Origin: Escherichia coli
GTDB taxonomy: Bacteria > Pseudomonadota > Gammaproteobacteria > Enterobacterales > Enterobacteriaceae
Assembly (NCBI RefSeq): GCF_003334405.1
Contig: NZ_QOWM01000002.1
DNA length: 64,000 nucleotides
Direction: 5' to 3' (one strand)
Shown here piece by piece: positions 5,672 to 31,858 of the stretch (its first letter is position 1; every line of letters starts with the position of its first letter). The translations under genes were made by a program, and so were the position numbers. The notes below the pieces were generated by a model. That model ran no database searches and had not been told where the DNA came from. It saw only the letters and a program-made list of their open reading frames with translations.

Positions 5672-7090
5672 ATGGTTACTATCAATACGGAATCTGCTTT
5701 AACGCCACGTTCTTTGCGGGATACGCGGCGTATGAATATGTTTGTTTCGGTAGCTGCTGCGGTCGCAGGATTGTTATTTGGTCTTGATATCGGCGTAATC
5801 GCCGGAGCGTTGCCGTTCATTACCGATCACTTTGTGCTGACCAGTCGTTTGCAGGAATGGGTGGTTAGTAGCATGATGCTCGGTGCAGCAATTGGTGCGC
5901 TGTTTAATGGTTGGCTGTCGTTCCGCCTGGGGCGTAAATACAGCCTGATGGCGGGGGCCATCCTGTTTGTACTCGGTTCTATAGGGTCCGCTTTTGCGAC
6001 CAGCGTAGAGATGTTAATCGCCGCTCGTGTGGTGCTGGGCATTGCTGTCGGGATCGCGTCTTACACCGCTCCTCTGTATCTTTCTGAAATGGCAAGTGAA
6101 AACGTTCGCGGTAAGATGATCAGTATGTACCAGTTGATGGTCACACTCGGCATCGTGCTGGCGTTTTTATCCGATACAGCGTTCAGTTATAGCGGTAACT
6201 GGCGCGCAATGTTGGGGGTTCTTGCTTTACCAGCAGTTCTGCTGATTATTCTGGTAGTCTTCCTGCCAAATAGCCCGCGCTGGCTGGCGGAAAAGGGGCG
6301 TCATATTGAGGCGGAAGAAGTATTGCGTATGCTGCGCGATACGTCGGAAAAAGCGCGAGAAGAACTCAACGAAATTCGTGAAAGCCTGAAGTTAAAACAG
6401 GGCGGTTGGGCACTGTTTAAGATCAACCGTAACGTCCGTCGTGCTGTGTTTCTCGGTATGTTGTTGCAGGCGATGCAGCAGTTTACCGGTATGAACATCA
6501 TCATGTACTACGCGCCGCGTATCTTCAAAATGGCGGGCTTTACGACCACAGAACAACAGATGATTGCGACTCTGGTCGTAGGGCTGACCTTTATGTTCGC
6601 CACCTTTATTGCGGTGTTTACGGTAGATAAAGCAGGGCGTAAACCGGCTCTGAAAATTGGTTTCAGCGTGATGGCGTTAGGCACTCTGGTGCTGGGCTAT
6701 TGCCTGATGCAGTTTGATAACGGTACGGCTTCCAGTGGCTTGTCCTGGCTCTCTGTTGGCATGACGATGATGTGTATTGCCGGTTATGCGATGAGCGCCG
6801 CGCCAGTGGTGTGGATCCTGTGCTCTGAAATTCAGCCGCTGAAATGCCGCGATTTCGGTATTACCTGTTCGACCACCACGAACTGGGTGTCGAATATGAT
6901 TATCGGCGCGACCTTCCTGACACTGCTTGATAGCATTGGCGCTGCCGGTACGTTCTGGCTCTACACTGCGCTGAACATTGCGTTTGTGGGCATTACTTTC
7001 TGGCTCATTCCGGAAACCAAAAATGTCACGCTGGAACATATCGAACGCAAACTGATGGCAGGCGAGAAGTTGAGAAATATCGGCGTCTGA
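5672..7090 (+). CDS. araE: Arabinose:H+ symporter (MFS sugar porter)
   Basis: 472 aa from ATG 5672 ([13 protein letters not shown]...); the track ORF starts 43 codons upstream at TTG 5543, which I take as spurious. MFS sugar-transporter signature. Confidence 0.93.
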
Positions 7091-7096
7091 TTTCAC

Positions 7097-7129
7097 GGGC
7101 CGGATGTGCTGTACATCCGGCCCTTTTTT
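7097..7129 (+). terminator. Rho-independent terminator after araE
   Basis: Perfect 11-bp stem GGGCCGGATGT/ACATCCGGCCC, 5-nt loop, then TTTTTT. Confidence 0.8.
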
Positions 7130-7218
7130 CGTTAATAGAGATTGGGCACTTGGCCGTTGAGGCGTTTGTCTCGTTCCTTATTCAGCCTTGTTGCGGTAAC
7201 ACACATCAGGAGAGAGGA

Positions 7219-7911
7219 ATGAAAACAATTGGTTTGCTGGGAGGAATGAGCTGGGAATCCACCATTCCTTACTATCGTTTGATAAATGAAGGCATTAAAC
7301 AGCGGCTTGGTGGGCTTCACTCTGCGCAAGTGCTGCTACATAGCGTCGATTTTCATGAAATAGAAGAGTGCCAGCGTCGCGGGGAATGGGATAAAACCGG
7401 GGACATTCTGGCTGAGGCGGCGCTTGGCTTACAGCGGGCGGGCGCAGAAGGTATTGTGTTATGTACCAATACGATGCATAAAGTGGCGGATGCCATTGAG
7501 TCACGTTGCACTCTGCCTTTCTTACACATTGCGGATGCCACCGGACGTGCAATTACCGGGGCCGGAATGACTCGTGTGGCGCTGCTGGGTACGCGTTACA
7601 CCATGGAACAGGATTTTTATCGCGGGCGGCTGACGGAACAATTTTCCATCAATTGTCTTATTCCTGAAGCGGATGAACGGGCGAAAATTAATCAGATTAT
7701 TTTTGAAGAACTGTGTCTGGGGCAATTTACCGAAGCGTCACGCGCTTATTATGCGCAAGTGATTGCTCGCCTTGCAGAACAGGGCGCACAGGGCGTCATT
7801 TTTGGCTGCACAGAAATTGGTTTACTGGTGCCAGAAGAGCGCAGTGTTTTGCCTGTGTTTGATACCGCGGCGATCCATGCCGAGGATGCTGTCGCTTTTA
7901 TGCTGTCGTAG
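7219..7911 (+). CDS. ygeA: Amino-acid racemase (Asp/Glu/hydantoin racemase family)
   Basis: 230 aa from ATG 7219 with AGGAG RBS ([15 protein letters not shown]...); track ORF is N-terminally extended. Confidence 0.88.
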
Positions 7912-21816: not shown

Positions 21817-22692
21817 ATGACCAGTAGCTATCTGCATTTTCCGGAGTTTGATCCGGTCATTTTCTCAATAGGACCCGTGGCGCTTCACTGGTACGGCCTG
21901 ATGTATCTGGTGGGTTTCATTTTTGCAATGTGGCTGGCAACACGACGGGCGAATCGTCCGGGCAGCGGCTGGACCAAAAATGAAGTTGAAAACTTACTCT
22001 ATGCGGGCTTCCTCGGCGTCTTCCTCGGGGGACGTATTGGTTATGTTCTGTTCTACAATTTCCCGCAGTTTATGGCCGATCCGCTGTATCTGTTCCGTGT
22101 CTGGGACGGCGGCATGTCTTTCCACGGCGGCCTGATTGGCGTTATCGTGGTGATGATTATCTTCGCCCGCCGTACTAAACGTTCCTTCTTCCAGGTCTCT
22201 GATTTTATCGCACCACTCATTCCGTTTGGTCTTGGTGCCGGGCGTCTGGGCAACTTTATTAACGGTGAATTGTGGGGCCGCGTTGACCCGAACTTCCCGT
22301 TTGCCATGCTGTTCCCTGGCTCCCGTACAGAAGATATTTTGCTGCTGCAAACCAACCCGCAGTGGCAATCCATTTTCGACACTTACGGTGTGCTGCCGCG
22401 CCACCCATCACAGCTTTACGAGCTGCTGCTGGAAGGTGTGGTGCTGTTTATTATCCTCAACCTGTATATTCGTAAACCACGCCCAATGGGAGCTGTCTCA
22501 GGTTTGTTCCTGATTGGTTACGGCGCGTTTCGCATCATTGTTGAGTTTTTCCGCCAGCCCGACGCGCAGTTTACCGGTGCCTGGGTGCAGTACATCAGCA
22601 TGGGGCAAATTCTTTCCATCCCGATGATTGTCGCGGGTGTGATCATGATGGTCTGGGCATATCGTCGCAGCCCACAGCAACACGTTTCCTGA
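21817..22692 (+). CDS. lgt: Phosphatidylglycerol-prolipoprotein diacylglyceryl transferase
   Basis: 291 aa polytopic; Lgt signature region. Confidence 0.94.
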
Positions 22693-22698
22693 GGAACC

Positions 22699-23493
22699 AT
22701 GAAACAGTATTTAGAACTGATGCAAAAAGTGCTCGACGAAGGCACACAGAAAAACGACCGTACCGGAACCGGAACGCTTTCCATTTTTGGTCATCAGATG
22801 CGTTTTAACCTGCAAGATGGATTCCCGCTGGTGACAACTAAACGTTGCCACCTGCGTTCCATCATCCATGAACTGCTGTGGTTTCTGCAGGGCGACACTA
22901 ACATTGCTTATCTACACGAAAACAATGTCACCATCTGGGACGAATGGGCCGATGAAAACGGCGACCTCGGGCCAGTGTATGGTAAACAGTGGCGCGCCTG
23001 GCCAACGCCAGATGGTCGTCATATTGACCAGATCACTACGGTACTGAACCAGCTGAAAAACGACCCGGATTCGCGCCGCATTATTGTTTCAGCGTGGAAC
23101 GTAGGCGAACTGGATAAAATGGCGCTGGCACCGTGCCATGCATTCTTCCAGTTCTATGTGGCAGACGGCAAACTCTCTTGCCAGCTTTATCAGCGCTCCT
23201 GTGACGTCTTCCTCGGCCTGCCGTTCAACATTGCCAGCTACGCGTTATTGGTGCATATGATGGCGCAGCAGTGCGATCTGGAAGTGGGTGATTTTGTCTG
23301 GACCGGTGGCGACACGCATCTGTACAGCAACCATATGGATCAAACTCATCTGCAATTAAGCCGCGAACCGCGTCCGCTGCCGAAGTTGATTATCAAACGT
23401 AAACCCGAATCCATCTTCGACTACCGTTTCGAAGACTTTGAGATTGAAGGCTACGATCCGCATCCGGGCATTAAAGCGCCGGTGGCTATCTAA
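22699..23493 (+). CDS. thyA: Thymidylate synthase
   Basis: 264 aa; conserved catalytic-Cys region ([13 protein letters not shown]). Confidence 0.96.
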
Positions 23494-23514
23494 TTACGAA
23501 ACATCCTGCCAGAG

Positions 23515-23541
23515 CCGACGCCAGTGTGCGTCGGTTTTTTT
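23515..23541 (+). terminator. Rho-independent terminator after thyA
   Basis: Stem CCGACGC/GCGTCGG, loop CAGTGT, then a 7-T run. Confidence 0.75.
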
Positions 23542-23676
23542 ACCCTCCGTTAAATTCTTCGAGACGCCTTCCCGAAATTTTGCAACGTCCTGCAACGGCG
23601 TAAATAGTCCGGAAGATGCGCCGAAGAAATAGAAACTGGCCCTCGTCTTTTTTTCTCCTCGCTCCATACTGCCGGC

Positions 23677-24147
23677 ATGAAAACACAACGTGGTTATACG
23701 CTGATTGAAACGCTGGTCGCGATGCTGATTTTGGTCATGCTAAGCGCAAGTGGACTCTATGGCTGGCAATACTGGCAGCAGTCGCAACGGCTATGGCAAA
23801 CCGCCAGCCAGGCGCGGGACTATTTGCTCTATTTACGTGAAGATGCCAACTGGCATAACCGCGACCACAGTATCAGCGTTATCAGGGAGGGGACGTTATG
23901 GTGCCTTGTGAGTTCCGCTGCTGGGGCCAATACCTGTCATGGCAGTTCACCATTGGTCTTTGTGCCACGCTGGCCCGAAGTCGAAATGAGCGACCTGACA
24001 CCTTCGCTTGCTTTCTTTGGCCTGCGCAATACCGCATGGGCCGGGCATATTCGCTTCAAAAACTCAACGGGCGAGTGGTGGCTGGTGGTTTCGCCGTGGG
24101 GAAGACTCCGGCTTTGTCAGCAAGGAGAAACAGAAGGATGCCTGTAA
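23677..24147 (+). CDS. ppdA: Prepilin peptidase-dependent protein A (pseudopilin-like)
   Basis: 156 aa; N-terminal prepilin-type methylation motif ([13 protein letters not shown]). Confidence 0.88.
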
Positions 24148-24701
24148 AAGAGCAAGGTTTTTCTCTGCTGGAAGTGTTGATTGCTATGGCGATCAGTAGC
24201 GTATTGTTGCTGGGGGCGGCACGCTTTCTGCCTGCGTTACAGCGTGAAAGTTTAACGAGCACCCGTAAGCTGGCGCTGGAAGATGAAATCTGGCTGCGGG
24301 TATTTACCGTCGCGAAGCATCTCCAGAGGGCGGGTTATTGTCATGGCATCTGTACCGGCGAAGGGCTGGAAATTGTCGGACAGGGTGACTGTGTCATTGT
24401 GCAGTGGGATGCGAACAGTAACGGTATCTGGGATCGCGAACCGGTAAAAGAGTCCGACCAGATTGGATTTCGTCTGAAGGAGCATGTGCTGGAAACGCTA
24501 CGCGGTGCGACATCCTGTGAAGGTAAGGGCTGGGATAAAGTCACTAATCCGGATGCCATCATTATCGACACTTTTCAGGTCGTACGTCAGGATGTCAGCG
24601 GCTTCTCGCCGGTGTTGACGGTTAATATGCGTGCTGCCAGTAAGTCTGAACCGCAAACCGTGGTGAATGCCAGCTATAGCGTGACAGGATTCAACCTGTG
24701 A
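24138..24701 (+). CDS. ppdB: Prepilin peptidase-dependent protein B
   Basis: 187 aa from ATG 24138 with GGAG RBS (track ORF is extended from 23898); prepilin motif [13 protein letters not shown]; overlaps ppdA. Confidence 0.85.
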
Positions 24702-25105
24702 ACCGCGAAAAGGGTGTTTCGTCACTGGCTCTGGTCCTGATGCTGCTGGTTTTGGGTAGTTTGCTATTACAAGGAATGAGCCAACAGGATCGCAGTTTTG
24801 CCTCTCGCGTGAGCATGGAAAGTCAGTCATTGCGCCGCCAGGCCATCGTTCAGTCGGCGCTGGCGTGGGGAAAAATGCACTCCTGGCAGACGCAGCCAGC
24901 AGTTCAGTGCTCGCAGTACGCTGAAACCGATGCCCAGGTTTGTTTGCGTTTACTGGCAGATAATGAAGCCTTATTGATTGCCGGTTATGAAGGCGTTTCG
25001 TTGTGGCGAACAGGCGAAGTCATTGATGGAAACATTGTTTTTTCGCCACGCGGCTGGAGCGATTTTTGTCCGCTGAAAGAGAGGGCGTTATGTCAGCTTC
25101 CCTGA
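24698..25105 (+). CDS. ygdB: Pseudopilin-like protein YgdB
   Basis: 135 aa, GTG start overlapping the ppdB stop; hydrophobic N-terminus. Confidence 0.8.
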
Positions 25106-25413
25106 AGAATCAACAAGGCTTTAGCCTGCCGGAGGTAATGTTGGCGATGGTGTTGATGGTGATGATTGTCACTGCGTTATCGGGTTTCCAGCGAACATTA
25201 ATGAACAGTCTTGCCAGCAGAAACCAGTACCAACAGCTCTGGCGGCATGGCTGGCAGCAAACGCAACTGCGCGCGATTTCGCCACCTGCCAACTGGCAGG
25301 TCAACCGAATGCAGACATCGCAGGCGGGATGTGTCAGCATCAGCGTTACGCTAGTTTCACCCGGGGGCAGAGAAGGCGAGATGACCCGCCTGCATTGCCC
25401 GAATCGTCAGTAG
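25090..25413 (+). CDS. ppdC: Prepilin peptidase-dependent protein C
   Basis: 107 aa from ATG 25090; prepilin motif [13 protein letters not shown]; overlaps ygdB. Confidence 0.85.
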
Positions 25414-25425
25414 TCAGGAGCCGCT

Positions 25426-28400
25426 ATGTTAAGGGTCTACCATTCCAATCGTCTGGACGTGCTGGAAGCGTTGATGGAGTTTATTGTCGAACGCGAACGG
25501 CTGGACGATCCTTTCGAACCAGAGATGATTCTGGTGCAAAGTACCGGTATGGCACAGTGGCTGCAAATGACCCTGTCGCAAAAGTTTGGTATTGCGGCAA
25601 ACATTGATTTTCCGCTGCCAGCGAGCTTTATCTGGGATATGTTCGTCCGGGTGTTACCGGAAATCCCCAAAGAGAGCGCCTTTAACAAACAGAGCATGAG
25701 CTGGAAACTGATGACTCTGCTGCCGCAATTGCTGGAGCGCGAAGACTTTACCCTGTTGCGGCATTATCTGACTGACGATAGCGACAAGCGAAAACTGTTC
25801 CAGCTTTCCTCAAAAGCGGCGGACCTGTTTGACCAGTATCTGGTCTATCGTCCGGACTGGCTGGCACAGTGGGAAACAGGACATTTGGTTGAAGGGCTGG
25901 GAGAAGCACAGGCCTGGCAAGCCCCGTTGTGGAAGGCGCTGGTGGAATATACCCATCAACTCGGGCAACCGCGCTGGCACCGCGCCAATCTCTATCAGCG
26001 CTTTATCGAAACGCTGGAGTCCGCGACGACCTGCCCGCCGGGGTTACCTTCGCGCGTCTTTATATGCGGTATTTCCGCGTTACCGCCTGTTTATCTCCAG
26101 GCGCTACAGGCGCTGGGTAAACATATTGAAATCCATCTCCTGTTTACCAACCCCTGCCGTTATTACTGGGGCGATATTAAAGATCCTGCTTATCTGGCGA
26201 AACTGCTGACCCGTCAGCGTCGACACAGTTTTGAAGATCGCGAATTGCCGCTATTTCGTGATAGCGAAAATGCCGGGCAGCTCTTTAACAGCGATGGTGA
26301 ACAGGATGTCGGCAACCCGCTGCTGGCTTCATGGGGTAAGCTTGGGCGCGACTACATTTATCTCCTTTCTGACCTGGAGAGCAGCCAGGAGCTGGACGCC
26401 TTTGTCGATGTCACGCCAGATAACCTGCTGCATAACATTCAGTCTGACATTCTGGAACTGGAAAACCGCGCCGTTGCTGGTGTGAACATCGAAGAGTTTT
26501 CCCGTAGCGATAACAAACGCCCGCTTGATCCACTGGATAGCAGTATCACCTTCCACGTTTGCCATAGCCCGCAGCGTGAAGTTGAAGTTTTACACGATCG
26601 CCTGCTGGCGATGCTGGAGGAAGACCCGACACTTACTCCGCGCGACATCATCGTGATGGTGGCTGATATCGACAGCTACAGTCCGTTTATTCAGGCTGTG
26701 TTTGGTAGCGCACCTGCGGATCGTTACCTACCTTACGCCATTTCCGACCGTCGTGCGCGGCAGTCACATCCGGTACTGGAAGCGTTTATCAGCCTGTTAT
26801 CACTGCCTGACAGTCGTTTTGTGTCAGAGGATGTGCTGGCGTTGCTGGATGTGCCGGTGCTGGCGGCGCGGTTTGACATCACCGAAGAAGGGCTGCGTTA
26901 TTTACGCCAGTGGGTCAACGAATCCGGCATTCGTTGGGGCATAGATGACGACAACGTTCGCGAGCTGGAACTCCCCGCCACCGGACAACACACCTGGCGA
27001 TTTGGCCTGACGCGTATGTTGTTGGGCTACGCGATGGAGAGCGCGCAGGGCGAGTGGCAATCGGTTCTACCTTATGATGAATCGAGCGGCTTAATTGCAG
27101 AACTGGTGGGGCATCTGGCTTCACTGCTAATGCAGCTAAACATCTGGCGTCGCGGGCTGGCACAGGAGCGTCCGCTGGAAGAGTGGTTGCCGGTTTGTCG
27201 CGATATGCTCAACGCCTTCTTCCTGCCGGATGCGGAAACCGAAGCGGCGATGACGCTGATCGAACAACAATGGCAGGCGATTATCGCCGAAGGTTTAGGT
27301 GCGCAGTATGGCGACGCGGTGCCGCTGTCACTATTGCGTGATGAACTGGCACAGCGTCTGGATCAAGAACGTATCAGCCAGCGTTTTCTCGCCGGACCGG
27401 TTAACATTTGTACTCTGATGCCAATGCGTTCAATTCCGTTCAAAGTGGTTTGCCTGCTGGGAATGAACGACGGCGTTTATCCACGTCAGCTTGCGCCATT
27501 GGGCTTTGACCTGATGAGCCAGAAACCGAAGCGTGGCGACCGTAGCCGTCGCGATGACGACCGCTATCTGTTCCTGGAAGCGTTAATTTCCGCGCAGCAA
27601 AAACTCTATATCAGCTATATCGGTCGTTCCATTCAGGATAACAGTGAGCGTTTCCCGTCGGTACTGGTGCAGGAACTGATCGACTACATCGGGCAAAGTC
27701 ATTATCTACCGGGCGATGAAGCGCTCAACTGTGATGAAAGCGAGGCAAGGGTAAAAGCGCATCTTACTTGCCTCCATACCCGGATGCCGTTTGATCCACA
27801 AAACTACCAGCCAGGCGAACGACAAAGCTATGCTCGTGAATGGCTACCTGCGGCCAGCCAGGCTGGTAAAGCACATTCTGAATTTGTTCAGCCGCTGCCG
27901 TTTACCTTACCGGAAACCGTGCCGCTGGAAACGCTACAACGATTCTGGGCACATCCGGTGCGGGCATTTTTCCAGATGCGTTTGCAGGTGAACTTCCGTA
28001 CTGAAGACAGCGAAATCCCCGACACCGAGCCATTTATTCTGGAAGGACTTAGCCGTTATCAAATCAATCAGCAGTTATTGAATGCACTGGTTGAGCAGGA
28101 TGATGCCGAACGCTTGTTCCGCCGCTTCCGAGCGGCAGGGGATTTACCGTATGGCGCTTTTGGTGAAATTTTCTGGGAAACACAGTGCCAGGAGATGCAG
28201 CAGCTTGCCGACAGAGTCATTGCCTGTCGCCAGCCGGGGCAGAGTATGGAAATTGATCTCGCCTGCAACGGTGTGCAGATAACTGGCTGGTTGCCGCAGG
28301 TGCAGCCGGATGGCCTGTTGCGCTGGCGTCCCTCTTTATTAAGTGTGGCCCAGGGAATGCAACTTTGGCTGGAACACCTTGTCTACTGTGCCAGCGGTGG

Positions 28401-28794
28401 TAATGGTGAAAGTCGCCTTTTTCTACGCAAAGACGGCGAGTGGCGTTTTCCGCCGCTTGCAGCCGAACAGGCTTTGCATTACCTCTCACAACTGATTGAG
28501 GGGTATCGTGAAGGAATGTCCGCGCCATTGCTGGTGTTACCTGAAAGTGGCGGCGCGTGGCTAAAAACCTGTTATGACGCGCAAAACGATGCCATGCTGG
28601 ATGACGATTCCACGTTGCAAAAAGCCCGTACGAAATTCCTTCAGGCTTACGAAGGCAACATGATGGTGCGTGGCGAAGGTGATGATATCTGGTATCAAAG
28701 GCTCTGGCGGCAATTAACACCAGAGACAATGGAGGCCATCGTTGAACAGTCGCAACGTTTCCTGTTACCGCTGTTTCGCTTTAATCAGTCATGA
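25426..28794 (+). CDS. recC: Exodeoxyribonuclease V gamma subunit
   Basis: 1122 aa; full-length match to RecC. Confidence 0.96.
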   Translation: MLRVYHSNRLDVLEALMEFIVERERLDDPFEPEMILVQSTGMAQWLQMTLSQKFGIAANIDFPLPASFIWDMFVRVLPEIPKESAFNKQSMSWKLMTLLPQLLEREDFTLLRHYLTDDSDKRKLFQLSSKAADLFDQYLVYRPDWLAQWETGHLVEGLGEAQAWQAPLWKALVEYTHQLGQPRWHRANLYQRFIETLESATTCPPGLPSRVFICGISALPPVYLQALQALGKHIEIHLLFTNPCRYYWGDIKDPAYLAKLLTRQRRHSFEDRELPLFRDSENAGQLFNSDGEQDVGNPLLASWGKLGRDYIYLLSDLESSQELDAFVDVTPDNLLHNIQSDILELENRAVAGVNIEEFSRSDNKRPLDPLDSSITFHVCHSPQREVEVLHDRLLAMLEEDPTLTPRDIIVMVADIDSYSPFIQAVFGSAPADRYLPYAISDRRARQSHPVLEAFISLLSLPDSRFVSEDVLALLDVPVLAARFDITEEGLRYLRQWVNESGIRWGIDDDNVRELELPATGQHTWRFGLTRMLLGYAMESAQGEWQSVLPYDESSGLIAELVGHLASLLMQLNIWRRGLAQERPLEEWLPVCRDMLNAFFLPDAETEAAMTLIEQQWQAIIAEGLGAQYGDAVPLSLLRDELAQRLDQERISQRFLAGPVNICTLMPMRSIPFKVVCLLGMNDGVYPRQLAPLGFDLMSQKPKRGDRSRRDDDRYLFLEALISAQQKLYISYIGRSIQDNSERFPSVLVQELIDYIGQSHYLPGDEALNCDESEARVKAHLTCLHTRMPFDPQNYQPGERQSYAREWLPAASQAGKAHSEFVQPLPFTLPETVPLETLQRFWAHPVRAFFQMRLQVNFRTEDSEIPDTEPFILEGLSRYQINQQLLNALVEQDDAERLFRRFRAAGDLPYGAFGEIFWETQCQEMQQLADRVIACRQPGQSMEIDLACNGVQITGWLPQVQPDGLLRWRPSLLSVAQGMQLWLEHLVYCASGGNGESRLFLRKDGEWRFPPLAAEQALHYLSQLIEGYREGMSAPLLVLPESGGAWLKTCYDAQNDAMLDDDSTLQKARTKFLQAYEGNMMVRGEGDDIWYQRLWRQLTPETMEAIVEQSQRFLLPLFRFNQS

Positions 28795-28969
28795 GTGCTG
28801 TATAAAAATTGCGCAATCTATCCGCTTACTTTATGATGCGCACCAGTCACGGACTGATGGTTATATAAACATAGGCTGACTCGTGCAGCACAAGATTAAA
28901 TTCTGGCAGATGATTTGCGTTAACGTGTTGAATCTGGACAGAAAATTAAGTTGATTATGAGGTCCGTGA

Positions 28970-31858
28970 ATGCCCCGCAGCACCTGGTTCAAAGCATTAT
29001 TGTTGTTAGTTGCCCTTTGGGCACCCTTAAGTCAGGCAGAAACGGGATGGCAGCCGATTCAGGAAACCATCCGTAAAAGTGATAAAGATAACCGCCAGTA
29101 TCAGGCTATACGTCTGGATAACGGTATGGTGGTCTTGCTGGTTTCTGATCCGCAGGCAGTTAAATCGCTCTCGGCGCTGGTGGTGCCCGTTGGGTCGCTG
29201 GAAGATCCCGAGGCGTACCAGGGGCTGGCACATTACCTTGAACATATGAGTCTGATGGGGTCGAAAAAGTACCCGCAGGCTGACAGTCTGGCCGAATATC
29301 TCAAAATGCACGGCGGTAGTCACAATGCCAGCACTGCGCCGTATCGCACGGCTTTCTATCTGGAAGTTGAGAACGACGCCTTGCCTGGTGCGGTAGACCG
29401 CCTGGCCGATGCTATTGCTGAACCTTTGCTCGACAAGAAATATGCCGAACGTGAGCGTAATGCGGTGAACGCTGAATTAACCATGGCGCGTACGCGTGAC
29501 GGGATGCGCATGGCACAGGTCAGCGCAGAAACCATTAACCCGGCACACCCCGGTTCAAAGTTTTCTGGTGGTAACCTCGAAACTTTAAGCGACAAACCTG
29601 GTAATCCGGTGCAGCAGGCGCTGAAAGATTTCCACGAGAAGTACTATTCCGCCAATTTGATGAAGGCGGTTATTTACAGTAATAAACCGCTGCCGGAGTT
29701 GGCAAAAATGGCGGCGGACACCTTTGGTCGCGTGCCGAACAAAGAGAGCAAAAAACCGGAAATCACCGTGCCGGTAGTCACCGACGCGCAAAAGGGCATT
29801 ATCATTCATTACGTCCCTGCGCTGCCGCGTAAAGTGTTGCGCGTTGAGTTTCGCATCGATAACAACTCAGCGAAGTTCCGTAGTAAAACCGATGAATTGA
29901 TTACCTATCTGATTGGCAATCGCAGCCCAGGTACACTTTCTGACTGGCTGCAAAAGCAGGGATTAGTTGAGGGCATTAGCGCCAACTCCGATCCTATCGT
30001 CAACGGCAACAGCGGCGTATTAGCGATCTCTGCGTCTTTAACCGATAAAGGCCTGGCTAATCGCGATCAGGTTGTGGCGGCAATTTTTAGCTATCTCAAT
30101 CTGTTACGTGAAAAAGGCATTGATAAACAATACTTCGATGAACTGGCGAATGTGCTGGATATCGACTTCCGTTATCCGTCGATCACCCGTGATATGGATT
30201 ACGTCGAATGGCTGGCAGATACCATGATTCGCGTTCCTGTTGAGCATACGCTGGATGCAGTCAATATTGCCGATCGGTACGATGCTAAAGCAGTAAAGGA
30301 ACGTCTGGCGATGATGGCGCCGCAGAATGCGCGTATCTGGTATATCAGCCCGAAAGAGCCGCACAACAAAACGGCTTACTTTGTCGATGCGCCGTATCAG
30401 GTCGATAAAATCAGCGCACAAACTTTCGCCGACTGGCAGAAAAAAGCCGCCGACATTGCGCTCTCTTTGCCAGAGCTTAACCCTTATATTCCTGATGATT
30501 TCTCGCTGATTAAGTCAGAGAAGAAATACGACCATCCAGAGCTGATTGTTGATGAGTCGAATCTGCGCGTGGTGTATGCGCCAAGCCGTTATTTTGCCAG
30601 CGAGCCCAAAGCTGATGTCAGCCTGATTTTGCGTAATCCGAAAGCCATGGACAGCGCCCGCAATCAGGTGATGTTTGCGCTCAATGATTATCTCGCAGGG
30701 CTGGCGCTTGATCAGTTAAGCAACCAGGCGTCGGTTGGTGGCATAAGTTTTTCCACCAACGCTAACAACGGCCTTATGGTTAATGCTAATGGTTACACCC
30801 AGCGTCTGCCGCAGCTGTTCCAGGCATTGCTCGAGGGGTACTTTAGCTATACCGCTACGGAAGATCAGCTTGAGCAGGCGAAGTCCTGGTATAACCAGAT
30901 GATGGATTCCGCAGAAAAGGGTAAAGCGTTTGAGCAGGCGATTATGCCCGCGCAGATGCTCTCGCAAGTGCCGTACTTCTCGCGAGATGAACGGCGTAAA
31001 ATTTTGCCCTCCATTACGTTGAAAGAGGTGCTGGCCTATCGCGACGCCTTAAAATCAGGGGCTCGACCAGAGTTTATGGTTATCGGCAACATGACCGAGG
31101 CCCAGGCAACAACGCTGGCACGCGATGTGCAAAAACAGTTGGGCGCTGATGGTTCAGAGTGGTGTCGAAACAAAGATGTAGTGGTCGATAAAAAACAATC
31201 CGTCATCTTTGAAAAAGCCGGTAACAGCACCGACTCCGCACTGGCAGCGGTATTTGTACCGACTGGCTACGATGAATACACCAGCTCAGCCTATAGCTCT
31301 CTGTTGGGGCAGATCGTACAGCCGTGGTTCTACAATCAGTTGCGTACCGAAGAACAATTGGGCTATGCCGTGTTTGCGTTTCCAATGAGCGTGGGGCGTC
31401 AGTGGGGCATGGGCTTCCTTTTGCAAAGCAATGATAAACAGCCTTCATTCTTGTGGGAGCGTTACAAGGCGTTTTTCCCAACCGCAGAGGCAAAATTGCG
31501 AGCGATGAAGCCAGATGAGTTTGCGCAAATCCAGCAGGCGGTAATTACCCAGATGCTGCAGGCACCGCAAACGCTCGGCGAAGAAGCATCGAAGTTAAGT
31601 AAAGATTTCGATCGCGGCAATATGCGCTTCGATTCGCGTGATAAAATCGTGGCCCAGATAAAACTGCTGACGCCGCAAAAACTTGCTGATTTCTTCCATC
31701 AGGCGGTGGTCGAGCCGCAAGGCATGGCTATTCTGTCGCAGATTTCCGGCAGCCAGAACGGGAAAGCCGAATATGTACACCCTGAAGGCTGGAAAGTGTG
31801 GGAGAACGTCAGCGCGTTGCAGCAAACAATGCCCCTGATGAGTGAAAAGAATGAGTGA
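28970..31858 (+). CDS. ptrA: Protease III (pitrilysin), periplasmic M16 zinc metalloprotease
   Basis: 962 aa; signal peptide; inverted zinc motif HYLEHM. Confidence 0.96.
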   Translation: MPRSTWFKALLLLVALWAPLSQAETGWQPIQETIRKSDKDNRQYQAIRLDNGMVVLLVSDPQAVKSLSALVVPVGSLEDPEAYQGLAHYLEHMSLMGSKKYPQADSLAEYLKMHGGSHNASTAPYRTAFYLEVENDALPGAVDRLADAIAEPLLDKKYAERERNAVNAELTMARTRDGMRMAQVSAETINPAHPGSKFSGGNLETLSDKPGNPVQQALKDFHEKYYSANLMKAVIYSNKPLPELAKMAADTFGRVPNKESKKPEITVPVVTDAQKGIIIHYVPALPRKVLRVEFRIDNNSAKFRSKTDELITYLIGNRSPGTLSDWLQKQGLVEGISANSDPIVNGNSGVLAISASLTDKGLANRDQVVAAIFSYLNLLREKGIDKQYFDELANVLDIDFRYPSITRDMDYVEWLADTMIRVPVEHTLDAVNIADRYDAKAVKERLAMMAPQNARIWYISPKEPHNKTAYFVDAPYQVDKISAQTFADWQKKAADIALSLPELNPYIPDDFSLIKSEKKYDHPELIVDESNLRVVYAPSRYFASEPKADVSLILRNPKAMDSARNQVMFALNDYLAGLALDQLSNQASVGGISFSTNANNGLMVNANGYTQRLPQLFQALLEGYFSYTATEDQLEQAKSWYNQMMDSAEKGKAFEQAIMPAQMLSQVPYFSRDERRKILPSITLKEVLAYRDALKSGARPEFMVIGNMTEAQATTLARDVQKQLGADGSEWCRNKDVVVDKKQSVIFEKAGNSTDSALAAVFVPTGYDEYTSSAYSSLLGQIVQPWFYNQLRTEEQLGYAVFAFPMSVGRQWGMGFLLQSNDKQPSFLWERYKAFFPTAEAKLRAMKPDEFAQIQQAVITQMLQAPQTLGEEASKLSKDFDRGNMRFDSRDKIVAQIKLLTPQKLADFFHQAVVEPQGMAILSQISGSQNGKAEYVHPEGWKVWENVSALQQTMPLMSEKNE

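Follow-up and report, generated by a model that had tools for sequence, protein, structure and literature searches.

The window analysed here is a stretch of 64,000 nucleotides of Escherichia coli DNA. From the start of ppdA to the first base of recC (positions 23677-25426) it carries four small genes, which overlap one another and end 12 nt before recC, as the preliminary description had stated:

23677-24147, plus strand: ppdA, 156 aa, minor pilin of the GspH/FimU/FimT class by its model; leader MKTQRG/YTLIE (slash, predicted cleavage site)
24138-24701, plus strand: ppdB, 187 aa, minor pilin, probable GspJ/PilW position; leader MPVKEQG/FSLLE
24698-25105, plus strand: ygdB, 135 aa, GTG start, DUF2509, apparently in the place of GspK/PilX; leader MNREKG/VSSLA
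25090-25413, plus strand: ppdC, 107 aa, the smallest minor pilin, probable GspI/PilV position; site before FSLPE
25416-25428, plus strand: Shine-Dalgarno sequence AGGAG of recC, inside the 12-nt gap after the ppdC stop, and the recC ATG

The overlaps, taken from the open reading frame listing and the sequence, are 10 nt (ppdA/ppdB), 4 nt (ppdB/ygdB) and 16 nt (ygdB/ppdC), in agreement with the 4-16 bp given earlier. The recC ATG lies at 25426, and ptrA, recB and recD follow downstream, also on the plus strand, which bears out the common orientation claimed for the ppd genes and the recC-ptrA-recB-recD cluster. A 100% identical RefSeq record of the K-12 type has the same four genes annotated at the same coordinates. 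The four genes, which carry names and annotation in all E. coli genomes, are already known, as is their linkage to recC.

The names ppdA-ppdB-ygdB-ppdC and the pseudopilin-like character of the products, both proposed in the preliminary description, hold, as NCBIfam equivalog models match all four proteins far above the cut-offs. The prepilin motif was likewise found in three of the four: PpdA, PpdB and PpdC match the Pfam N_methyl family PF07963 (5e-7, 1e-8 and 2e-6, respectively) and also TIGR02532. YgdB, matched by Pfam DUF2509, has Ala at position +5 and gives no N_methyl match, as in GspK-type subunits. All four leaders are short, positively charged and end in Gly, followed by a hydrophobic stretch of ~20 residues, and the Gly at position -1 is invariant or conserved to at least 90% in the alignments of PpdA, PpdB, YgdB and PpdC. 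The set has the composition of a minor pilin quartet, with four overlapping pilin-like genes of which one, ygdB, encodes a product without Glu5. Cleavage and N-methylation of the four products by prepilin peptidase are predicted, and the names (prepilin peptidase dependent) go back to prediction and to earlier work.

The pilin fold, in which a long N-terminal helix lies on an antiparallel sheet, is present in the structure models of PpdA and YgdB. The PpdA model has the GspH/FimU/FimT fold, with the H class clear; its best structural matches include GspH/EpsH, and FimU matches equally well. YgdB (DUF2509) is, by its model, a fourth pilin-fold protein, which keeps the cleavage-site Gly and lacks Glu5, and this structural confirmation may be of interest to specialists. 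The model matches GspI about as well as GspK, and the extra domain of GspK is absent. YgdB is a probable GspK equivalent on the basis of position, fold and the missing Glu5, not of homology, and it is much smaller. PpdB is recognized by NF007848 at 4e-98, with a weak match to GspJ (2.7e-4) and, for the PpdB profile, to the T. thermophilus pilin TTHA1219 (also weak); PF27121 (PpdB) is matched on PpdB orthologues. PpdC is recognized by NF007660 at 3e-65 and, besides N_methyl, by the Pfam family T2SSppdC (PF12528), with no informative match to solved structures. Searches of PDB sequences with the four proteins and their profiles returned the generic N-terminal pilin helix or nothing. At the sequence level, the GspJ/PilW position is probable for PpdB and the GspI/PilV position for PpdC.

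All of the 5426 complete E. coli genomes searched carry the ppd block, and the same layout, with recC directly downstream, is found in each of the 80 Enterobacteriaceae species sampled. The arrangement had been described as unusual; it is universal in this sample and has been in print since 2006, when the ppd-recC adjacency was noted in Enterobacteriaceae and Pasteurellaceae and the ppd genes were given as orthologous to pulG-HI0941 (PMC1635313). The overlaps and the 12-nt gap are almost invariant across the 80 species; automatically called genes give a gap of 12 nt in 68 of them, a count that rises to 69 once the mis-called locus L022 is corrected. An apparent 577-nt insertion before recC in Citrobacter koseri is artefactual and was traced to a recC frame that is broken in the assembly. 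The gene order is also the same in Providencia, where ppdC overlaps recC by 23 nt, and in Pectobacterium and Pantoea, where 60-nt spacers precede recC, while in Gilliamella an intact four-gene module is located away from recC. A diverse YgdB alignment proved too heterogeneous for scanning genomes and a narrower one gave Enterobacteriaceae only, so the synteny in Pasteurellaceae rests on the literature. The same applies to the orthology of YgdB to comP, since the YgdB profile search reached Orbaceae and no named Pasteurellaceae protein.

All four genes are under purifying selection, with dN/dS of 0.09-0.13 against E. albertii and 0.09-0.25 along their whole length. Conservation by codon position follows the order 2>1>3, gene lengths and motifs are kept in the 80 species, and the YgdB family has an invariant pattern of Cys and Trp residues that reaches Orbaceae. 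The ppd proteins evolve faster than their neighbours, and occasional broken copies occur (loci L009 and L066). No Rfam families and no defence-system models were matched in the region.

The function of the genes had been called unclear in the preliminary description; in the literature their products are treated as minor pilins of the type IV pilus, which prime the assembly of the fibre, and the genes as subject to Sxy/CRP-S regulation. PulG assembly is primed by PpdAB-YgdB-PpdC in a pulHIJK mutant (PMC5131608, citing Cisneros 2012), and a reconstituted E. coli type IV pilus (T4P) system uses the ppd genes as minor pilins (bioRxiv 10.1101/856302). According to PMC12616744, with Sinha 2009 and Jaskolska & Gerdes 2015 as its sources, the ppd operon is Sxy-regulated. 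Transcription of other Sxy-regulated pilus genes, ppdD and yrfD, is poor or undetectable unless Sxy is induced (PMC1635313). For E. coli, the abstract of PMC3330819 gives neither a laboratory phenotype nor natural transformation. An operon ppdAB-ygdB-ppdC-recC is listed in PMC3936743.

Among known systems, comNOPQ of Haemophilus influenzae (HI0938-HI0941, 'pulG-HI0941') likewise comprises four small prepilin-type genes in one operon upstream of a co-oriented recC (PMC1635313). In PMC12616744 these genes likewise belong to the Sxy/CRP-S competence regulon, are needed for Haemophilus DNA uptake and are also located before recC. Compared with fimU-pilVWXY1E of the Pseudomonas aeruginosa type IVa pilus, the E. 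coli cluster lacks both PilE and a gene for the PilY1 adhesin, and its genes are smaller and overlap tightly. They are also reported to be regulated by CRP-Sxy, whereas the P. aeruginosa minor pilins are under Pseudomonas regulators. With respect to GspH-I-J-K (ETEC complex, PDB 3ci0), YgdB with its 135 aa is without the large inserted domain of GspK, and the ppd genes, in an H-J-K-I-like order, lie outside a gsp operon and have the regulon and partners of a pilus/competence system. PpdA matches the DNA-binding minor pilin FimT of Legionella pneumophila more weakly than GspH or FimU, and DNA binding by E. coli PpdA is putative.

The spacer between thyA and ppdA contains the following elements:

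23514-23541, plus strand: thyA intrinsic terminator, fold of -16.6 kcal/mol (z -3.25) with a downstream U run
23558-23573, plus strand: candidate CRP-S site TTCGA-GACGCC-TTCCC, 8/10 against TGCGA-N6-TTCCA
23581-23596, plus strand: direct repeat TGCAAC-N4-TGCAAC with a 10-bp period, within the promoter region of ppdA
23665-23670, plus strand: hexamer CAtACT, separated from the ppdA ATG by exactly 6 nt; over 70 species the consensus is CA.ACT-.ccG.CATG

The thyA terminator, named earlier as the only obvious one upstream, is real by RNA folding; it is conserved across Enterobacteriaceae and delimits the ppd transcription unit on the upstream side. The pattern scan gave no convincing terminator between ppdA and recC. 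The candidate CRP-S site, centred 111.5 nt before the ppdA ATG, is the sole 8/10 match in the intergenic region to the E. coli consensus TGCGA-N6-TTCCA (PMC6728893), and 8/10 matches are as frequent in the window as expected by chance. Its position is conserved across genera, with 9/10 matches in other species: Pseudescherichia and Silvania have TGCGA-N6-TTCC in the alignment, Enterobacter has TACGA or TTCGA-N6-TTCCA, and similar CRP-S-like sites are found upstream of ppdA in Pantoea, Providencia and Gilliamella. The palindromic form (TGCGA-N6-TCGCA, with up to 2 mismatches) is absent from the spacer. From this pattern we infer a candidate site for CRP and Sxy at 23558-23573.

The TGCAAC repeat is among the best-conserved elements of the spacer other than the terminator (70 species). 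A sigma-54 promoter at the repeats was rejected by eye, as the GG of the -24 element is absent. A CpxR-like reading as GTAAA-N5-GTAAA would be no more than a loose resemblance. The ppdA start has no preceding Shine-Dalgarno sequence, and CAtACT might, speculatively, be the -10 box of a leaderless ppdA transcript. Such conserved elements in the ppdA promoter region may be of interest to specialists.

Another conserved element lies within the 3' part of ppdC:

25312-25341, plus strand: candidate recC promoter, -35 CAGACA (25312-25317), 17-nt spacer, extended -10 with TGt and CAGCAT (25332-25340)

The synonymous sites of this block are invariant in 73 species. The fraction of identical codons, given an identical amino acid, is 0.88 (10-codon window) against a background of 0.46, and the best other ppd window reaches 0.60. 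The alignment shows a conserved hexamer, 10 variable nucleotides and a conserved 12-mer; the promoter-like motif is present in 77 of 80 species and ends 85 nt before the recC ATG in 72. Transcription is predicted to start near 25347. The candidate -10 element CAGCAT is weak (3/6, plus TG at -15/-14), and the invariant block contains a short inverted repeat, GATG-N6-CATC. The putative 5' leader of recC shows no unusual RNA structure (z 0.17). A scan for consensus sigma-70 promoters (22600-29100) found none on the plus strand, and its negatives carry little weight because it also omitted the genuine thyA terminator, probably as the stem extended into the T run. No description of an embedded recC promoter was found in the papers available; one may well exist in older work (Finch et al. 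1986) or in RegulonDB.

The block in ppdC suggests that recC is not dependent on the ppdA promoter. Judged from its sequence, it is probably a sigma-70 promoter of recC itself, to which read-through from ppdA would be added when Sxy is on. As there is no terminator between ppdC and recC, transcripts from the ppdA promoter should read into recC; the features of a transcription unit (same strand, absence of a terminator, 12-nt gap) are conserved across species, and co-transcription of ppdA to recC is plausible.

A single ppdA-to-recC operon, in which recC would depend on the ppdA promoter and the pseudopilins would be functionally fused to RecBCD expression, accounts for the missing terminator, the 12-nt gap with its near-invariant spacing in 80 species, the 23-nt ppdC/recC overlap of Providencia and the operon listing ppdAB-ygdB-ppdC-recC (PMC3936743). 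It is nevertheless unlikely in view of the promoter geometry in ppdC, synonymous-invariant in 73 species, and of the synteny, with the Gilliamella module away from recC and the 60-nt spacers of Pectobacterium and Pantoea. Moreover, RecBCD is needed constitutively. The Sxy-regulated ppdD and yrfD are near-silent when uninduced (PMC1635313), and the ppd genes are themselves reported to be Sxy-regulated (PMC12616744). The expression "fused to the RecBCD cluster", used in the preliminary description, is overstated, given the location of the Gilliamella module. It is possible, at a lower probability than we give to a recC promoter, that the block at 25312-25341 is a different signal, such as a regulator site at GATG-N6-CATC, a site for RNA processing or for an sRNA, or a signal in the translation of ppdC. 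The weak -10 element and the inverted repeat would fit such a signal, while the pattern of hexamer, variable 10 nt and 12-mer, the 17-nt spacing, the TG at -15/-14 and the fixed distance of 85 nt from the recC ATG argue for a promoter, as do the ordinary structure of the downstream RNA (z 0.17) and the lack of an Rfam match there.

As to the proteins, they might be spare pseudopilins of a cryptic type II secretion system (Gsp) and not parts of a T4P or DNA-uptake machine, as the structural matches of PpdA to GspH/EpsH and of YgdB to GspI/GspK, and the name of PF12528 ('Type II secretion prepilin peptidase dependent protein C'), would have it. This is very improbable: the T4P minor pilin FimU matches PpdA as well as GspH does, and the gsp operons of E. 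coli already carry their own gspHIJK. Co-regulation with pilus and competence genes by Sxy and the need for the counterparts comNOPQ in Haemophilus uptake are reported (both in PMC12616744), and the T4P reconstitution uses the ppd genes as minor pilins (bioRxiv 10.1101/856302). Least credible of all is that the ppd genes are decaying relics without present function, kept for the regulatory signals of recC. The lack of a laboratory phenotype or natural transformation in E. coli (abstract of PMC3330819), the faster evolution and the occasional broken copies (L009, L066) would agree with decay; neither a dN/dS near 1 nor frequent frameshifts across species were seen, and dN/dS stays at 0.09-0.25 throughout all four genes, whose lengths and motifs are kept in 80 species. 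In addition, the Cys/Trp pattern of YgdB reaches Orbaceae, and the Gilliamella module is intact though not beside recC.

In our reading, the region is with high probability the ppdAB-ygdB-ppdC operon of E. coli K-12, encoding the four core minor pilins of a chromosomal type IVa pilus/DNA-uptake machine in an old, conserved position before recC. The other parts of the machine would be the major pilin PpdD, HofB/C, HofMNOPQ and the prepilin peptidase. The peptidase would cut the short, basic, Gly-ending leader and leave the hydrophobic N-terminal helix, after which PpdA, PpdB and PpdC would form a small inner-membrane complex with the Glu5-less YgdB. At the fibre tip, this complex would prime polymerisation of the major pilin, as GspHIJK does for the type II pseudopilus. 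The operon would be essentially silent in the laboratory and be switched on by CRP-cAMP and Sxy (TfoX) at the weak, asymmetric CRP-S site. As RecC is needed constitutively, recC would most probably be driven by a weak sigma-70 promoter of its own, lying within the 3' portion of ppdC. The present analysis supplies the structure of the genes, the pilin folds, the conservation and purifying selection, the synteny and the invariant ppdC block; assembly priming, regulation by Sxy/CRP-S and the requirement for comNOPQ in DNA uptake by Haemophilus come from the literature, and we infer which sequence is the CRP-S site, the recC promoter and the read-through.

A promoter embedded in ppdC would explain how an always-needed repair gene can stand behind a silent operon. 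More tentatively, and at somewhat less than an even chance, this housekeeping promoter has frozen seven codons of ppdC across Enterobacteriaceae, and Sxy-dependent read-through raises RecC while the uptake machinery is being synthesized. If this is true, DNA uptake and RecBCD dosage would be hard-wired to each other.

The region belongs to a K-12-type E. coli chromosome (over 23400-25500 it shows 100% identity to strain J53 and comparable records), and RefSeq labels its genes, in order, thyA, ppdA, ppdB, ygdB, ppdC, recC, ptrA and recB. The features of the open reading frame (ORF) listing and the terminator are the following:

23514-41, thyA terminator, judged genuine
23677-24147, + strand, ppdA
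24138-24701, + strand, ppdB
24698-25105, + strand, ygdB (GTG start)
25090-25413, + strand, ppdC
from 25426, + strand, recC

The ppd genes overlap by 10, 4 and 16 nt (ppdA/ppdB, ppdB/ygdB and ygdB/ppdC), the 12-nt gap after ppdC contains the Shine-Dalgarno sequence of recC, and recB and recD lie further downstream in the same orientation. The preliminary description of four overlapping genes on one strand, ending 12 nt before recC, thus agrees in all details with the ORF listing and RefSeq, and the thyA terminator is indeed the only obvious one upstream. A consensus terminator scan of 22600-29100 found no terminator-like element between ppdA and recC, a negative of limited weight, as the scan also missed the clear thyA terminator (probably by extending the stem into the T run).

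The prepilin motif claimed for three of the four products is confirmed by the N-termini and by Pfam N_methyl matches in three proteins. The full cleavage/methylation motif is present in PpdA (MKTQRG|YTLIE), PpdB (MPVKEQG|FSLLE) and PpdC (mature part starting |FSLPE); YgdB (MNREKG|VSSLA) keeps the glycine without Glu5. All four proteins far exceed the NCBIfam equivalog cut-offs, with additional Pfam matches to T2SSppdC in PpdC and DUF2509 in YgdB. PpdA was modeled with AlphaFold from 38 orthologues (pLDDT 89) and compared with known structures. For PpdB and PpdC, placement was possible only by size, order and weak sequence matches. The YgdB family is very small: a profile search of 1.84 billion representatives yielded 154 clusters (50% identity), and all named members belong to Enterobacterales or Orbaceae. 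Invariant in this family are a Gly in position -1, a pair of Trp, and four Cys (C71, C82, C124, C132) together with a GW(S/L/I)D(F/Y)CP motif, a pattern that suggests two disulfides.

The arrangement had been called unusual and its function unclear, and neither statement holds. The ppd region occurs in 5426/5426 complete E. coli genomes at 95-100% identity. (The E. coli collection has 5429 matching places, one of them on a record labelled plasmid, and in at least one genome the thyA-ppd-recC junction region is present twice.) Among 80 Enterobacteriaceae species, sampled as one genome per species with a YgdB alignment (including Escherichia, Citrobacter, Salmonella, Enterobacter, Klebsiella/Raoultella, Kluyvera, Kosakonia and others), recC lies directly downstream in every one. 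Genes ppdB and ygdB share 4 nt in 76 species, ygdB and ppdC share 16 nt in 77, and ppdA and ppdB share either 10 or 7 nt in 72. Between ppdC and recC, automatic gene calling gives a gap of 12 nt in 68 species and of 15 nt in 6; the former count becomes 69 after correction of Citrobacter koseri NCTC10786, in whose assembly the recC reading frame is interrupted. Besides this locus, the exceptions to the layout are Enterobacter sp. EA-1, with seemingly broken thyA, ppdA, ppdB and recC, Escherichia sp. MOD1-EC7003, with ygdB shortened to 79 codons, and Kluyvera sichuanensis, where a 2.8-kb insertion separates thyA from ppdA.

Conservation by codon position follows 2>1>3 in all four genes, and dN/dS against E. 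albertii is 0.09-0.13 for the ppd genes, 0.00 for thyA and 0.03 for recC. The ppd genes are fast-evolving yet clearly under purifying selection, and the region is neither rare nor decaying. The thyA-ppd-recC-ptrA-recB order extends to Providencia, where the gene in the ppdC position (7441-7824 of the locus) runs 23 nt past the start of recC, and to Pectobacterium and Pantoea, with 60-61 nt between the two. In Gilliamella (Orbaceae) the four-gene module (ppdA-like, PpdB, DUF2509, PpdC) lies away from recC; on a G. apicola metagenome contig it occupies 5984-7754, and the gene after it is a convergent hydrolase gene instead of recC. The module is therefore autonomous, and its linkage to recC not obligatory.

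In the literature, the enteric ppd genes are taken as orthologues of H. influenzae pulG-HI0941 (PMC1635313), and the E. coli operon is Sxy-regulated, ppdA being the most strongly induced (PMC12616744). PpdAB-YgdB-PpdC prime PulG pseudopilus assembly in a pulHIJK mutant (Cisneros et al. 2012, as cited in PMC5131608), and in reconstitutions of the E. coli type IV pilus the four genes serve as 'minor pilins' (bioRxiv 10.1101/856302). Co-transcription with recC is likewise existing database annotation, and a transcript-stability study gives the operon as ppdAB-ygdB-ppdC-recC (PMC3936743). The preliminary description is thus borne out and its interpretation only in part: this is the known type IV pilus/competence minor-pilin operon at its conserved position before recC.

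The thyA-ppdA spacer, aligned from 70 species, contains conserved elements beyond the thyA terminator, namely CGtAaaa, cTCG and the following:

23558-23573, T[T/G]CG[A/G]-N6-TTCC, candidate CRP-S site
23581-23596, TGCAAC-N4-TGCAAC, a direct repeat with a period of 10 bp and one of the most strongly conserved elements apart from the terminator
within 23665-23679, CAtACT hexamer exactly 6 nt 5' of the ppdA ATG, kept in Enterobacteriaceae (CAGAGT in Pantoea)

The element at 23558-23573 resembles the asymmetric E. coli CRP-S consensus TGCGA-N6-TTCCA (PMC6728893), matching 8/10 positions in E. coli and 9/10 in several other genera, with comparable sites upstream of ppdA in Pantoea, Providencia and Gilliamella; it lies 111.5 nt from the ppdA ATG. 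Matches of 8/10 quality occur in the window at chance frequency (70 found, 72 expected). The TGCAAC repeats do not form an inverted repeat of the CRP type, and the GG of a sigma-54 -24 box is absent. No Shine-Dalgarno sequence precedes ppdA, and the CAtACT-N6-ATG spacing would fit, speculatively, the -10 box of a leaderless ppdA mRNA.

With nothing halting transcription between ppdA and recC, Sxy-induced transcripts should reach recC. RecBCD is needed constitutively, and a second promoter is therefore expected for recC. Transcription of other Sxy-regulated pilus genes, ppdD and yrfD, is poor or undetectable in the absence of Sxy induction (PMC1635313). Synonymous sites were compared in 73 species, each <90% identical to E. 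coli, as the fraction of identical codons given the same amino acid. The background is 0.46 and no 10-codon window of ppdA, ppdB or ygdB exceeds 0.60, whereas the ppdC window 25312-25341 reaches 0.88; here the codons CAG, ACA, GGA, TGT, GTC, AGC and ATC are identical in all species wherever the amino acid is the same. The aligned block consists of invariant CAGACA, 10 variable bases and invariant (G)ATGTGTCAGCATC (in short, CAGACA, 10 variable nt, then GATGTGTCAGCATC). It can be read as a putative recC promoter with sigma-70 geometry:

25312-17, -35 element CAGACA, followed by a 17-nt spacer
25332-33, TG of an extended -10
25335-40, -10 element CAGCAT
~25347, predicted start

The promoter-like motif is found in 77/80 species; in 72, its end lies 85 nt upstream of the recC ATG. 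The main alternative is that the block carries some other embedded signal; the RNA leader downstream of it has no unusual fold, and the ppd-recC region has no Rfam match. We lean, by a modest margin, towards a recC promoter embedded in ppdC. No description of such a promoter was found, although the older literature may hold one, and it may be the sole part of the analysis not already described. More tentatively, and with rather less confidence, the embedded promoter and Sxy-driven read-through could together couple RecC dosage to DNA uptake.
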